Positions 15,956 to 57,912 of a stretch of 64,000 bases of DNA are shown piece by piece. The DNA is from a bacterium (GTDB taxonomy: Bacteria; UBA8248; JACPRG01; G963555815). The stretch covers positions 416,001-480,000 of the forward strand of contig OZ244653.1 in the NCBI GenBank assembly GCA_965218795.1. Direction: 5' to 3'. How positions within the stretch are numbered: the first letter of the stretch is position 1; every line of letters starts with the position of its first letter. A program made the translations under genes and the position numbers. Under the pieces are notes generated by a model. The model had not been told where the DNA came from. It made no database searches and saw only the letters and a list, made by a program, of their open reading frames with translations.

Positions 15956-16513
15956 ATGTCCCTGAACATTTCTCGGAAAAAAATCATATTCGGGGGGATC
16001 CTCGCGGGCCTGATTCTGGCGGCGTGGTTCAGCCTGCCGCCGGCCCAGGGCCAGAACCTGCCCGGGACTGAGAACGCTCCTAAAGTGGGCGGCAAGGCCC
16101 CGATGTTCGATTTGGAAGGATTTGACTTAAAGAAACAATTGGAACGAGGGCCCGTCGTCCTCGTATTTTATCGAGGATTCTTTTGAGGAATCTGCCGCCA
16201 GCAGCTCGTGCAGCTGCAAGCCGATCTCAAGAAAATCAAAGAACTGAAAGGCGGGCTCGCCGCGATCAGTTCGGATCGTTTAGAAACAGCCATCCAGACC
16301 AAGACCGCCCTGAAGCTCTCCTACAACATCCTGCCCGACACCAAACGGCAGGTCATTCAGCTTTACGGCATCCTGCATCCTGACGAAGGGATCGCGCGTC
16401 CGGGCATTTTTGTTATCGACCAGAAGGGTTTTGTCCGCTTCCGCCACATCGGGAAGAACGCAGGCGACCGGCCAACCAATGCCCGGATAATCAATGCTCT
16501 CAAATGGCTCTAA
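15956..16513 (+). CDS. Selenocysteine-containing AhpC/TSA (peroxiredoxin-like) protein, UxxC, with signal peptide
   Basis: Tracked ORFs 15827-16186 and 16208-16513 are in the same frame. Joined sequence VVLVFYRGFF-[TGA 16184-16186]-GICRQQL matches FYRGxxCxxC. ARPGIFVIDQKG downstream; GGAG before ATG 15956. Confidence 0.88.
16201..16217 (+). promoter_or_regulatory. Putative SECIS element
   Basis: GCAGCT-CGTGC-AGCTGC perfect 6-bp stem; loop GU at +22/+23 after the UGA. Confidence 0.7.
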
Positions 16514-16626
16514 CCCACTGAGAAGCAGGCCGAAGTTTTTCTGTTTATTTGATTTTGTCTGGTTTGAGGACAGAAACGAACGGTTCTTTTTGGCCGGAAA
16601 AATTTCATGAAAAATGAAAAACGAAA

Positions 16627-16655
16627 TTGACACGCCCGTCTCTTTCTGCGAGAAT
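16627..16655 (+). promoter_or_regulatory. Sigma70 promoter upstream of the GntR regulator
   Basis: TTGACA, 17 nt, GAGAAT, with TGn extended -10. Confidence 0.5.
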
Positions 16656-16713
16656 TTCAATGGAAATTGTGAGTTGACGGCTGCCATTCATCCAGATCCG
16701 GCGGAGCGATTCT

Positions 16714-17403
16714 TTGAACATCGCACATGACAACCTGAGAGAGAAGGTCTACCAGCGGCTCAAAGAGTTGATCGTCAACGAATCCTATCCCCCCGGGTCG
16801 AGGATCAACGTTGAGAGGCTTACGCGGGAATTCGGCGTCAGCCGGACGCCGATTTGGGAAGCCGTCCAGAAACTCACCCAAGAGGGTCTGCTCGAGGACG
16901 TCCCACGGCGGGGCGTATTCGTGCTCGCCCATTCACCCGAGCGGGTCGAAGATATCTATTCGTTATGGGAAGTCCTGGAAGGTCTCGTCTCCCGTTGCGC
17001 CGCGGAACGGCGGGACGGCTCCGCGCTCCTTCGGATCCGCAAGGCCCTCGACCGTCAGGCCGGGTGCCTGGAACAGCATGACCTGGACGGCTGCATCCAG
17101 GCCATCGGCGATTTCCACCAGGGAATCGCCGCGGCATCGAGCCACGGTCAGGCAAGGGTGCTGCTCGAGAGCGTTATCAGCCAGAGCCGTGCCCTGGGTT
17201 TTCGTTCGATCTATTTTCCCGGCCGGCCGGTCAAGGACGTGGAAGAACATGCGGCCATTTACCGGGCCATTGAAGCGGGGGACGGCGACCTCGCCGAGGA
17301 CCTCGCCCGGGAACACATTCGAACGGTGAAAGAGAAGGTGCTGGAAAGCGTGAGGTTGGAATTGGAAGGATCCGGGAAGCGGGAGAGCGTTCCAGCGTCT
17401 TGA
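16714..17403 (+). CDS. GntR (FadR/FCD) transcriptional regulator
   Basis: FGVSRTPIWEA wHTH; FCD FH...EH..I..AI...D...A....REH. Confidence 0.92.
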   Translation: MNIAHDNLREKVYQRLKELIVNESYPPGSRINVERLTREFGVSRTPIWEAVQKLTQEGLLEDVPRRGVFVLAHSPERVEDIYSLWEVLEGLVSRCAAERRDGSALLRIRKALDRQAGCLEQHDLDGCIQAIGDFHQGIAAASSHGQARVLLESVISQSRALGFRSIYFPGRPVKDVEEHAAIYRAIEAGDGDLAEDLAREHIRTVKEKVLESVRLELEGSGKRESVPAS

Positions 17404-17462
17404 CCGCGCGGATTGTCCGGCCATGAGATGACGCGAAGTCGTCATGTTATTTTGGGGAACCG

Positions 17463-54868: not shown

Positions 54869-55330
54869 ATGGGAAAAGGTCGAATTGCCATAGGGTCGGA
54901 TCACGCCGGATTCGAGTTAAAGGAAAAGATCAAAGAGTTCCTGGAGAGGCGCGGGGAGGTCGTTGTCGACTTCGGAGCGAATTCTCGCGAATCGGTTGAT
55001 TATCCTGATTACGGGCGGAAGGTTGCAAAGGCTGTCGCGAACGGCGAGGATGAGCTAGGGATTCTGATCTGCGGCACGGGTATCGGGATGAGCATTGTCG
55101 CGAATAAGGTGCCGGGCATCCGTGCCGCGTTGGTTCAGGATATTTTCACTGCGAAAATGGCGCGTGAGCACACCAATGCGAACCTTCTCGTTCTTGGGGC
55201 CCGTGTGGTGGACCCTGAGATCGCACCACAACTCGTGGGGACATGGCTCGATTCCCAGTTCCAGGGAGAGCGTCACAAGCGGCGGATCGACAAGATTGCC
55301 GAACTAGAAAAGGAGAATGGGACCCCGTGA
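54869..55330 (+). CDS. rpiB: Ribose-5-phosphate isomerase B
   Basis: [32 protein letters not shown]. Confidence 0.96.
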
Positions 55331-56592
55331 TCAACCATCGGCCCGTTGAAGATATCGACCCTGAAATCGCAAAGATCATCGAACTGGAACAGCAACGCCA
55401 GGAGGAAAGCCTCGAACTCATCGCATCCGAAAACTTCACCAGTGCCGCTGTGATGGAAGCGCAGGGCTCTGTGCTCACGAACAAGTACGCCGAGGGTCTC
55501 CCCGGACGCCGATATTATGGCGGTTGTGAGTTTGTAGATCAGGCCGAGAACTTGGCGCGGGAACGCGTCAAATCGCTGTTCGGGGCCGGCTATGCAAACG
55601 TTCAGCCGCACTCGGGCACGCAAGCGGTGACCGCCGGATATTTAGCGTTGATCAAACCCGGTGATACGATTCTGGGGATGAATCTTGCGCATGGAGGGCA
55701 TCTGACGCACGGCAGTCCGGTCAATGTTTCGGGAACCCTCTTTCAGGTCGTCGCATACGGAGTGGATCGGGAGACCGAAACCATCGATTTTGATGAGGTA
55801 CGCTCCAAGGCGAGGGAACATCGTCCCGCGATGATCGTGGTGGGAGCGAGCGCGTATCCTCGGCGGATCCCGTTCGATCGGTTCCGTGAAATCGCGGATG
55901 AGGTAGGGGCCAAGGTGATGGTGGATATGGCTCACATTGCGGGTCTGATCGCTGCGGATCTGCACCCCAACCCCGTTCCCCACGCCGATATTGTCGTCGC
56001 CACAACGCACAAGACATTACGGGGACCCCGCGGCGGGTTCGTCCTGACGAATCATGAAGACGTCGCCAAAGAGATGAACAAGAAGGTCTTTCCGTTCCTT
56101 CAAGGGGGCCCGCTGATGCACGTGATCGCGGCCAAAGCGGTTGCGTTTCAGGAGGCGTTATCGGAGGAATTCCGGAGTTATCAGCTTCAAATCGTGCGCA
56201 ACGCTGCAACGCTGGCCGAAGCCTTATTATCCCATGGGATCGATTTGATCTCCGGCGGAACTGATAACCATCTCATGCTCGTGGACTTGCGCAACAGCCC
56301 CGTAGACGGCAAGGCTGCGCAAACGGCTCTGGAGGCGGCGGGAATTACGGCGAACCGGAATATGGTTCCTTTTGACGAGCGGTCGCCTTTTGTCTCCAGC
56401 GGCGTCCGGATCGGCACGCCGGCCATCACCAGCCGGGGGATGGGTGAGGACGAGATGCGCGTCATCGCTGGATGGACCGCCGACATTTTGGGCGATGTCG
56501 AAAACACAGTCTTGAGGGAGAAAATCCGGGAAGGCGTCCGGGAGCTCTGCGGGAGATTTCCCCTGCATTCGAGGACCCACGCAACGGTTTGA
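55327..56592 (+). CDS. glyA: Serine hydroxymethyltransferase
   Basis: [43 protein letters not shown] overlap with rpiB. Confidence 0.97.
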
Positions 56593-56614
56593 TTCCATAT
56601 AGGAGAATGCATGA

Positions 56615-57139
56615 ATGAAGTGTCCCTCCTGCGGGTCGACGAACACACGAGTCATCGATTCCCGCCTCACCAAGGACGGGAACGCGGTTCGACGTCGGCG
56701 GGAATGCGAGCAGTGCGAGCGGCGATTCACGACGTACGAGCGCCTCGAGGAAGTGTTTCCGCTTCTGGTCAAGAAAGACGGCCGGCGCGAACCGTACGAC
56801 CGGAACAAAGTGGTTCTCGGGCTTCAAAAGGCATTGGAGAAGCGGCCGGTGAGCGCGGACGTCATCGAGGCCATCGCCGATCGGGTGGAACGGTTCATCC
56901 TGGAGACGGGAGAGAAAGAGACTCCCAGCGTGGCCATCGGGGAGCAGGTGATGAACGAACTGCGCGATGTCGACCACGTCGCTTACGTTCGATTCGCTTC
57001 GGTCTACCGATCGTTCAAGGACCTAGACGATTTTATGGACCAACTCAAAGAACTCTTGCAGGACCGCTCCGGGGACTACAGCGACGGCTCGGCCGACTTG
57101 GCGGCCCGACCCTCTGAGCGCTCCCTCTCCGCCTCCTGA
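56615..57139 (+). CDS. nrdR: Transcriptional repressor NrdR
   Basis: [29 protein letters not shown] cone, AYVRFASVY. Confidence 0.97.
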
Positions 57140-57357
57140 GCCTCTACCGCATATCGCCCATCACTGTGTTTCTCATACCAGGCAGGCATTGAACTCCCCA
57201 AGGATGTCCTGCTTTTCTCCCGGCATCCGGATTTTTGCAATGATCAGACATCTTTATGACAAAATGCTCCCGGTTCGTGTCTACATTGATGACAGGAGAA
57301 GTATCGGAGACGTGAATTGAAAGAACAGGTTCTTCCGCGCCACCGGGGGCTTTGGAT

Positions 57358-57912
57358 ATGAACAGAAAACATTCAACTCGTTACTGGGTATTGGGAAGTA
57401 TCGGGTTGGCGCTTGCGCTGTTTGTGTTTTTTCCGATTCAGGCGAGAATCTCCGCCAATTCTTTGATTGGAAGTCCTGCACCCGCTATCAAGAGCACGGC
57501 ATGGATCAATTCGCCCGGCATCGATTGGCCATCGCTCCGCGGCAAGGTGGTCCTCATCGACATGTGGACCTTCGGGTGATTCAACTGCCGCAATGACGTG
57601 CCGCAGTTGGCGGCTTGGCATCGAAAATACGGGAAGCAGGGTTTGGTCATCATCGGAAATCACGCTCCCGAGTTCCGTTATGAGAAGAAGCTCGAAAACG
57701 TGCAGAAGGCAACCAGGGAGCTTGGGATTCAGTACGCCGTTTGCCTGGATAACGATTTCAAGAACTGGAAGGCATACCGCAACCGGTACTGGCCCACGAA
57801 ATATCTAGTCGATAAGAAGGGGATCCTGCGGTACTTCACGATTGGAGAAGGGAATTACTCATCGACTGAAATCATGATTGAGCGGCTCTTGGCGGAGACT
57901 CCGCAAAGCTGA
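57358..57912 (+). CDS. Selenocysteine-containing exported thioredoxin-like (DipZ/TlpA-type) protein, UxxC
   Basis: WINS...LRGKVVLIDMWTFG-[TGA 57577-57579]-FNC, then in-frame HAPEFRYEK, NRYWPTKYLVDKKG, GEGNY; N-terminal signal/TM. Confidence 0.9.
57600..57614 (+). promoter_or_regulatory. Putative SECIS element
   Basis: GCCGC-AGTTG-GCGGC apical stem with loop GU at +27/+28; lower stem TGCC/GGCA; an alternative CAACTGC/GCAGTTG fold also exists. Confidence 0.55.

Follow-up and report, generated by a model that had tools for sequence, protein, structure and literature searches.

We report four genes, called genes 1 to 4 in order of position, in a 64,000-nucleotide stretch of bacterial DNA (the window; positions 416001-480000 of contig OZ244653.1, GTDB lineage UBA8248), which belongs to a single-contig complete genome of 5,174,045 bp and 60.5% G+C. 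Each gene is interrupted by an in-frame TGA, and we are highly confident, judging from sequence comparison, that all four are genuine selenoprotein genes in a bacterium with a standard bacterial selenocysteine (Sec, U) system. This reading builds on the continuous frames, the domains, the genes of the Sec machinery, the conservation of the TGA codons, and the pairing and covariation of the hairpins that follow them. A first-pass annotation, made from the letters of the window, had located the four genes and noted homology beyond each TGA. Translation with TGA as U indeed gave one continuous frame for each gene, with exactly the coordinates it had proposed, and a Pfam domain spans each U.

Decoding machinery and four genes with an in-frame TGA

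The genome encodes the components needed to decode UGA as Sec. A tRNA-Sec at 5045747-5045839 scored 72.1 bits against RF01852 (cut-off 47), and a second program, ARAGORN, likewise typed it as tRNA-SeC with anticodon tca, the only one among the 56 tRNAs of the genome to have the anticodon UCA. The selA gene (TIGR00474, 565.8 bits) adjoins selB (TIGR00475, 386.7 bits, full length, 1-581), and selD (TIGR00476, 319.1 bits) itself carries one in-frame TGA; all three exceed their cut-offs. The first-pass annotation had stated that selA, selB, selC and selD lie outside the window and had asked for a search of the genome; they are absent from the window and present elsewhere. TGA is also the commonest stop codon, closing 1387 of the 2161 open reading frames (ORFs) of at least 400 codons (64%), and prfB, the gene for release factor 2 (RF2), was found with 517 bits. 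Since TGA is the commonest stop, RF2 is present and the sole UCA tRNA is tRNA-Sec, UGA is an ordinary stop that is recoded locally and not a reassigned codon. The genome thus has every element of the Sec-decoding trait, namely a tRNA-Sec with anticodon UCA, SelA together with SelB and SelD, and a UGA that still serves as a stop. ARAGORN also returned an odd tRNA-like call at 256424-256515, a 'tRNA-???' of 92 nt whose anticodon has two bases (gg).

With this machinery, SelD would make selenophosphate, SelA would turn Ser-tRNA(Sec) into Sec-tRNA(Sec), and SelB-GTP bound to a hairpin, the selenocysteine insertion sequence (SECIS), would bring Sec-tRNA(Sec) to the ribosome. The SECIS would begin ~11-17 nt past the UGA, within the coding sequence, and the UGA would then be read as Sec rather than as a stop by RF2.

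Gene 1 (15956-16513, +) is predicted to encode a peroxiredoxin (Prx)-like thiol:disulfide oxidoreductase of 185 aa with a hydrophobic N-terminal leader and the motif U77-G-I-C80 (FFUGIC), the Sec codon being the UGA at 16184-16186 (+). The AhpC-TSA domain (PF00578, 81.3 bits, residues 44-162) spans U77. The first-pass annotation had placed every TGA exactly at a catalytic Cys. This was borne out for genes 2, 3 and 4, whereas for gene 1 it applies only in the sense of a CxxC-type motif: in classical peroxiredoxins the counterpart of U77 is a Ser/Thr that precedes the peroxidatic Cys by three residues, and in comparison with a solved structure of the BCP type, Cys80 occupies the peroxidatic position with Ser opposite U77. 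The partners found for the U position of gene 1 were paralogs and orthologs that likewise have U at that place. No selenoprotein-specific NCBIfam cut-off was reached, the best model being SelL-related redox protein (58 versus 120 bits). Orthologs of this and the other three genes were sought in the 51 genomes that the collection searched has for the phylum, each a species of it and all of one class. For gene 1 the best match had one in-frame TGA in 49 of them, and all 14 fetched loci had TGA as the aligned codon. The product would be an exported Prx-like UxxC oxidoreductase.

Gene 2 (26294-26980, +) encodes a putative DsbA-like selenoprotein of 228 aa with the motif U15-P-W-A (HUPWA) and without the second Cys; its Sec codon is at 26336-26338 (+). 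The DSBA domain (PF01323) scored 37.4 bits against a cut-off of 25.6 and covers the N-terminal part only (residues 7-48); no crotonase domain was detected in the protein, and no NCBIfam model matched it. The counterpart of U15 is the first Cys of CPWC in FrnE and a Cys in a full-length homolog of 62% identity, the Cys homologs showing either CPWA or CPWC. A full-length ortholog with one TGA (at least 182 bits) was present in 45 of the 51 genomes. Among the fetched loci the TGA was at the aligned codon, and the UPWA motif was kept, in 13 of the 13 that cover the site, which a 14th does not reach. As read by eye, the sequence starts with no hydrophobic stretch. The 'periplasmic redox' of the first-pass annotation therefore fits genes 1 and 4, the only two in which a leader, first basic and then hydrophobic, could be read, and does not fit gene 2, whose product would be a DsbA-like protein of the cytoplasm with one Sec.

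That annotation had also proposed that gene callers miss such genes, and the database relatives of gene 2 agree with this. As many as 17 of 21 cover only 89-91% of its length, and the three short ones examined start at a Met five residues past the TGA. One ortholog is named 'DsbA family protein [Nitrospinota bacterium]' in the database.

Gene 3 (54150-54749, -) encodes a predicted O6-alkylguanine-DNA alkyltransferase (Ogt/MGMT) of 199 aa with the motif P-U159-H-R-V, the Sec codon being at 54273-54275 (-). The DNA_binding_1 domain (PF01035, 97.5 bits, residues 108-190) spans U159, and TIGR00589 scored 85.1 bits against a cut-off of 46.4. PUHRV aligns on the PCHRV of solved OGT/MGMT structures (4wxc), which puts U159 at the position of the acceptor Cys; the domain and the acceptor motif, with U for C, mark the protein by sequence as a probable member of the Ogt/MGMT family. 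It is the only PF01035 match in its genome. A match with a TGA inside was found in 44 of the 51 genomes, six others having only open matches and one having none, and all 15 fetched loci had PUHRV and the aligned TGA. A scan for MGMT loci with a back-translated Cys-codon pattern returned only Cys-type MGMT genes and was uninformative on the spread of the Sec form. The product would be an O6-alkylguanine-DNA alkyltransferase that takes the alkyl group on Sec, and in most of the phylum, as in this genome, the sole protein of this kind would be a Sec form. Since an MGMT is a 'suicide' protein with a single turnover, each lesion would cost one Sec. One speculation, which we think very unlikely to be right, is that the Se-alkyl adduct can be resolved and the protein regenerated, so that Sec-MGMT acts as a true enzyme; if true, this would explain why so costly a residue has been kept across the phylum.

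Gene 4 (57358-57912, +) encodes a predicted thioredoxin-fold selenoprotein of 184 aa, similar to TlpA and to the C-terminal part of DipZ, with a hydrophobic N-terminal leader and the motif U74-F-N-C77 (GUFNC); its Sec codon is at 57577-57579 (+). The AhpC-TSA domain (PF00578, 42.6 bits, residues 37-159) spans U74, and residues 40-180 match the thioredoxin domain of Mycobacterium tuberculosis DipZ (2hyx, 5cyy) with an E value of 2e-43. UFNC aligns on the CINC of DipZ, and U74 corresponds to the first Cys of the CxxC motif (2hyx). The best match had a TGA inside in 43 of the 51 genomes, the other eight having no match at E 1e-10, and in each of the 14 fetched loci the aligned codon was TGA. The product would be an exported DipZ/TlpA-like UxxC thiol-disulfide oxidoreductase.

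Taken together, the TGA is conserved in orthologs of other species for all four genes. At protein identities as low as 40-50% the aligned codon is still TGA, and the protein sequence downstream of it is conserved in the relatives. Sec/Cys pairs, with Cys in homologs at the place of U, were found for genes 2, 3 and 4. We judge that an in-frame TGA opposite a conserved Cys, with similarity on both sides, describes the set, with the qualification that the solved peroxiredoxin has Ser opposite the U of gene 1. Two other interrupted genes of the same genome served as controls. The TGA of a phosphate-selective porin gene (L128; 3085532-3086878, +) and that of an ABC solute-binding protein gene (L117; 1349369-1350586, -) were rejected as Sec codons, because the frame is open in all seven and all eight other genomes with an ortholog, respectively; they are thus nonsense mutations (pseudogenes or strain variants). 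As these TGAs behave differently from those of the four genes, the conservation test discriminates. Furthermore, contigs of four runs from four studies, compared over 53900-58000, had 0-19 differences from the window and none at 54273-54275 or 57577-57579. A TGC or TGT at the TGAs of genes 3 and 4, which the first-pass annotation had named as grounds for dropping its proposal, was therefore seen in none of them.

None of the four genes has related neighbours. Gene 1 lies between genes for a peptide-binding protein and a GntR regulator, and gene 2 has a gene for a MetE-like protein on one side and one for an amidohydrolase on the other. Between genes 3 and 4 are rpiB, glyA and nrdR, such that the Sec-MGMT and DipZ-like genes are ~3 kb apart (54150-57912). 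Their orthologs are likewise ~3 kb apart in three genomes of the same family (G001:C23, G002:C2, G006:C33); in the other family, the DipZ-like gene is instead ~3 kb from a DsbA-like gene. In the contigs of two of the four runs, a 16-nt insertion is found at 57287, between nrdR and gene 4, ~70 nt before the start codon of the latter.

Downstream hairpins and rival explanations

Bacterial SECIS elements, by the criteria of bSECISearch, are hairpins just 3' of the UGA with a small apical loop that holds a G and lies ~16-37 nt from it. The hairpins predicted here fit this description, with apical loops that begin 23, 23, 22 and 16 (or 28) nt past the U in genes 1 to 4. They had been called 'similar' in the first-pass annotation, a word that suits the general architecture they have in common and not their sequences. 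Its loops CGUGC, GGC and GUG for genes 1 to 3 were recovered, and these are the genes whose hairpins show covariation. The hairpin of gene 1 (16201-16217, +; stem GCAGCU(C)/(G)AGCUGC, loop CGUGC or GUG) was paired in 87.8% of 98 cells over 14 orthologs, with both sides changed at three pairs. That of gene 2 (26352-26368, +; a 7-bp stem with loop GGC) was paired in 100% of 84 cells over 12 distinct orthologs, and one pair switches from U-A in 4 sequences to G-C in 8, the 3' base changing between synonymous Arg codons.

The hairpin of gene 3 (54244-54260, -; GGGUCCC/GUG/GGGACCU) was paired in 40 of 42 cells among six orthologs from the same family as the window. In the other family the hairpin takes another register and was paired in 56 of 56 cells, with two compensatory pairs. 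Neither hairpin holds when applied across families (15 of 56 and 1 of 42 cells). The predicted SECIS of gene 3 was rebuilt between the two families around an unchanged Sec codon.

For gene 4, the SECIS region (57581-57614, +) can form two mutually exclusive hairpins. Hairpin A (57581-57610, +; loop AUGACG) is longer and is the minimum-energy fold. Hairpin B (57600-57614, +; GCCGC/AGUUG/GCGGC) is the one given in the first-pass annotation and is thus an alternative fold. Among six orthologs of the same family, A was paired in 62 of 66 cells and B in 29 of 36, the latter with one compensatory change. In the other family, where a different hairpin folds, pairing fell to 21 of 56 cells for A and 11 of 40 for B. 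On the whole, the view of the first-pass annotation that these UGAs are decoded by the bacterial Sec system agrees with the machinery present, with the TGA kept in orthologs, and with hairpins that pair and carry compensatory changes.

We also asked how far a hairpin can be trusted by itself. At -10 kcal/mol or lower, a qualifying hairpin followed 91 of 250 ordinary Cys codons (36%), versus 27 of the 39 Sec sites verified across the genome (see below). The verified sites fold more stably as a set (median -12.2 versus -7.5 kcal/mol, P = 3e-6), and two Mann-Whitney comparisons of verified sites with Cys-codon controls gave P = 1e-4 and 3e-6. In 28 of the 39 the loop lies 19-23 nt past the U. A single downstream hairpin is nevertheless weak evidence alone.

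Several observations weigh against our reading of the four genes. At 60.5% G+C, and depending on which of the four hairpins is compared, 13-42% of ordinary Cys codons precede sequence of equal or greater folding stability. The functional hairpin of gene 4 is ambiguous between A and B, and the lower stem of A is invariant, so that covariation cannot speak for it. Genes 3 and 4 have weak dicodon coding scores (0.03-0.41). The comparison with contigs of other runs covers two of the four TGAs, those of genes 3 and 4, and the window itself may derive from one of the four runs, which would then not be independent.

These points bear on three other explanations of the TGA codons. If the TGAs were nonsense mutations or assembly errors, the four genes would be pseudogenes or artefacts. 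The genome does hold such cases, as the porin and solute-binding protein genes show, and one AhpD-like copy looks degenerate past its TGA. In the four genes, in contrast, the TGA is at the same codon in all 13-15 fetched orthologs per gene, the domains run on past it, and no contig of the four studies departs from the TGA of gene 3 or of gene 4, which makes this explanation extremely improbable. The UGA might also stand for a residue other than Sec (Cys, Trp or Gly), if the code were reassigned or if a selC-like tRNA carried Cys. Cys is the homologous residue, and sequence alone cannot separate Sec from Cys at a UGA. Reassignment, which the first-pass annotation had likewise held to be fatal to its proposal, was not seen, as TGA is the commonest stop (64% of long ORFs) and RF2 is present; moreover, two programs typed the sole UCA tRNA as tRNA-Sec, and selA, selB and selD exceed their cut-offs. 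We consider it very unlikely that a residue other than Sec is inserted.

A third explanation accepts Sec insertion as minor or selenium-conditional read-through and holds that termination at the UGA dominates, the short products being the ones used. RF2 competes with SelB at every Sec codon. Products ended at the UGA would, however, lack the active-site residue together with most of the fold in genes 1, 2 and 4 (U77, U15 and U74) and the PCHRV acceptor in gene 3, and all relatives conserve the protein sequence encoded past the TGA. We give dominant termination as little chance as insertion of another residue. The four genes are thus best read as selenoprotein genes, in which Sec would be inserted at each UGA.

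The genome-wide selenoproteome

Selenoprotein genes were sought across the genome by our own scan, which combined a dicodon score, a paralog BLASTP and a hairpin filter; Pfam was then applied to 58 further TGA-interrupted frames and to two window candidates. This gave at least 39 verified selenoprotein genes, counting the four of the window and selD. The true number may be higher than 39, as gene 4 itself was lost in one stage of the scan. The first-pass annotation had predicted a very large selenoproteome, and it is indeed large, although four genes in one window were a poor gauge of it: the average density is 0.47 such genes per 64 kb, which the window overstates. When 38 sites were placed at random, at least four fell in a 64-kb window in 29% of simulations. 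With P = 0.29 and with genes 3 and 4 being syntenic neighbours in relatives, the density of the window marks no cluster and allows no extrapolation.

The verified set consists mainly of AhpD-, DsbA-, Prx- and OsmC-like proteins, together with GrdA and GrdB. In the first Pfam batch, a domain ran across the U in 19 of 20 frames (three Prx-like/Prx, six DsbA-like, one TlpA-like and nine AhpD-like/CMD). The second yielded 11 genes in 10 frames (one CMD, five OsmC-like, two GrdB, one GrdA, one ArsC-family and one deiodinase-like). The third added three of 10 frames (a glutaredoxin, a DUF3179 protein and a GrdB/PrdB-like protein), and the last one of 18 genome frames, a metallo-beta-lactamase and rhodanese protein. 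Two frames are uncertain: that at 1018300 (+) is related to AhpD only below the cut-offs, and that at 2445201 (+) is a fragment copy. The two GrdB genes (TATUGTCTRCG) are at 760402-762276 (-) and 4197075-4198376 (+), and one is followed in the same frame by GrdA (CFVUTSAG). The AhpD-like copy at 1223927-1224553 (+) has a CGYU motif and a hairpin of -19.5 kcal/mol and turns into unrelated low-complexity sequence after about residue 105; by its sequence it is possibly a decaying copy.

The metallo-beta-lactamase and rhodanese protein (2788860-2790278, -) has a metallo-beta-lactamase domain followed by two rhodanese domains, and its TGA, in the motif STUGRS between domains, is kept in five other genomes of the phylum. 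It stayed below every selenoprotein-specific cut-off of NCBIfam. A 2026 review contains none of the words MBL, lactamase and PF00753, and the protein may correspond to its entry 'rhodanese-like form 1 (UxxS)'. An in-frame TGA was found in none of the 12 molybdopterin, 4 thioredoxin and 17 rhodanese domain matches of the genome. Its absence from the molybdopterin matches means that the genome has no Sec formate dehydrogenase (Sec-FdhA), which the accessible part of the same review describes as the most widespread bacterial selenoprotein.

Among the frames rejected after Pfam, five (L112, L114, L120, L123, L129) are adjacent genes that share a frame and two (L118, L133) have a late true start; seven (L119, L126, L131, L132, L135, L136, L138) end at ordinary stops, and seven more (L122, L124, L125, L127, L130, L134, L137) belong to no Pfam family. 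Both window candidates were false alarms in spite of coding signal on both sides. The TGA at 7243 (frame 7171-7515, +) lies upstream of a cupin domain and that at 31808 (frame 31754-33430, +) upstream of a TPP-enzyme domain, the true start being downstream in each case.

At 60.5% G+C the dicodon score alone was too weak as a filter, with genes 3 and 4 under the first thresholds and gene 4 lost under the six-frame filter. When 9786 TGA-flank peptides were compared with one another by BLASTP to find Sec/Cys or Sec/Sec paralogs, off-frame matches among repeats dominated the output, which was of use only after the six-frame filter and inspection by eye. Near-identical repeats are numerous in this genome, with a second copy at 80% identity or more for 698 TGA-flank sites, and they confounded this paralog search.

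Relation to known selenoprotein families

All four genes belong to families that are in the published catalogues, as far as these are accessible, and are ordinary for this lineage; the supplementary tables of those catalogues may list this genome. They leave the known picture of Sec decoding unchanged. What the present analysis adds is a complete single-contig genome in a lineage already among the bacteria richest in selenoproteins, with a selenoproteome built from families of the thiol-oxidoreductase type and from glycine-reductase components. It also illustrates the cost of missed Sec codons. Gene callers cut or split such genes, and the public collection holds mostly forms of gene 2 that are shortened past the TGA, so that the record lacks the catalytic residue and what the lineage can do in redox chemistry and DNA repair is underestimated.

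The lineage itself has been surveyed. In BSepDB (2026), Table 2 lists three genomes of GTDB UBA8248, labelled Nitrospinota or Nitrospinae by NCBI, with 54, 50 and 48 selenoprotein genes, and these rank among the ten bacteria richest in selenoproteins (PMC13326102). The present genome, with at least 39 from a scan of incomplete recall, compares with the 48-54 in that table. A full-text search for Nitrospina together with selenoprotein returned PMC13326102 alone.

The Prx-like (UxxC), DsbA-like (UxxC; DxxUP) and thiol-disulfide isomerase-like/redoxin (UxxC) families are among those tabulated in PMC9312934 and PMC13188914. Gene 1 has the PF00578 domain, above its cut-off, and a UxxC motif like the Prx-like selenoproteins (PF00578, UxxC/UxxU) in the tables of these two sources, and it resembles them in that its U precedes the Cys of the peroxidatic site by three residues. 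Gene 4 has the redoxin domain and the UxxC motif of the 'thiol-disulfide isomerase-like / redoxin family' as given there (PMC9312934; PMC13188914). Compared with M. tuberculosis DipZ, gene 4 encodes a stand-alone domain with its own leader and no fusion to a CcdA-like membrane domain, and it would have Sec where DipZ has its first Cys.

Gene 2 departs further from what is tabulated. The DsbA-like selenoproteins appear in the accessible tables of PMC13188914 as form 1 (PF01323, UxxC) and form 2 (DxxUP, crotonase fusion). Gene 2 is like them in its PF01323 match above cut-off and in having Sec at the first position of a CPxC-type motif. It shares PF01323 with form 1 but has UPWA instead of UxxC, and it is therefore DsbA-like but outside form 1 as listed in that source. 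A DsbA-like UPWA subfamily without an NCBIfam model is a modest point of novelty.

The other modest novelty is the phylum-wide occurrence of Sec-MGMT. The family was first reported in 2005 as CHY0809 of Carboxydothermus hydrogenoformans, which the accessible text of that paper regarded as probably a recent, single-species invention (PMC1287953), and it has since been listed as a known selenoprotein family in the accessible parts of PMC1976440, PMC9312934 and PMC13188914. Gene 3 has in common with CHY0809-type Sec-MGMT, as described there, the Ogt/MGMT fold and a Sec replacing the alkyl-acceptor Cys of PCHRV. In contrast to the picture drawn in 2005, however, it is kept in 44 of the 51 genomes of its phylum and is the sole PF01035 gene of the genome studied here.

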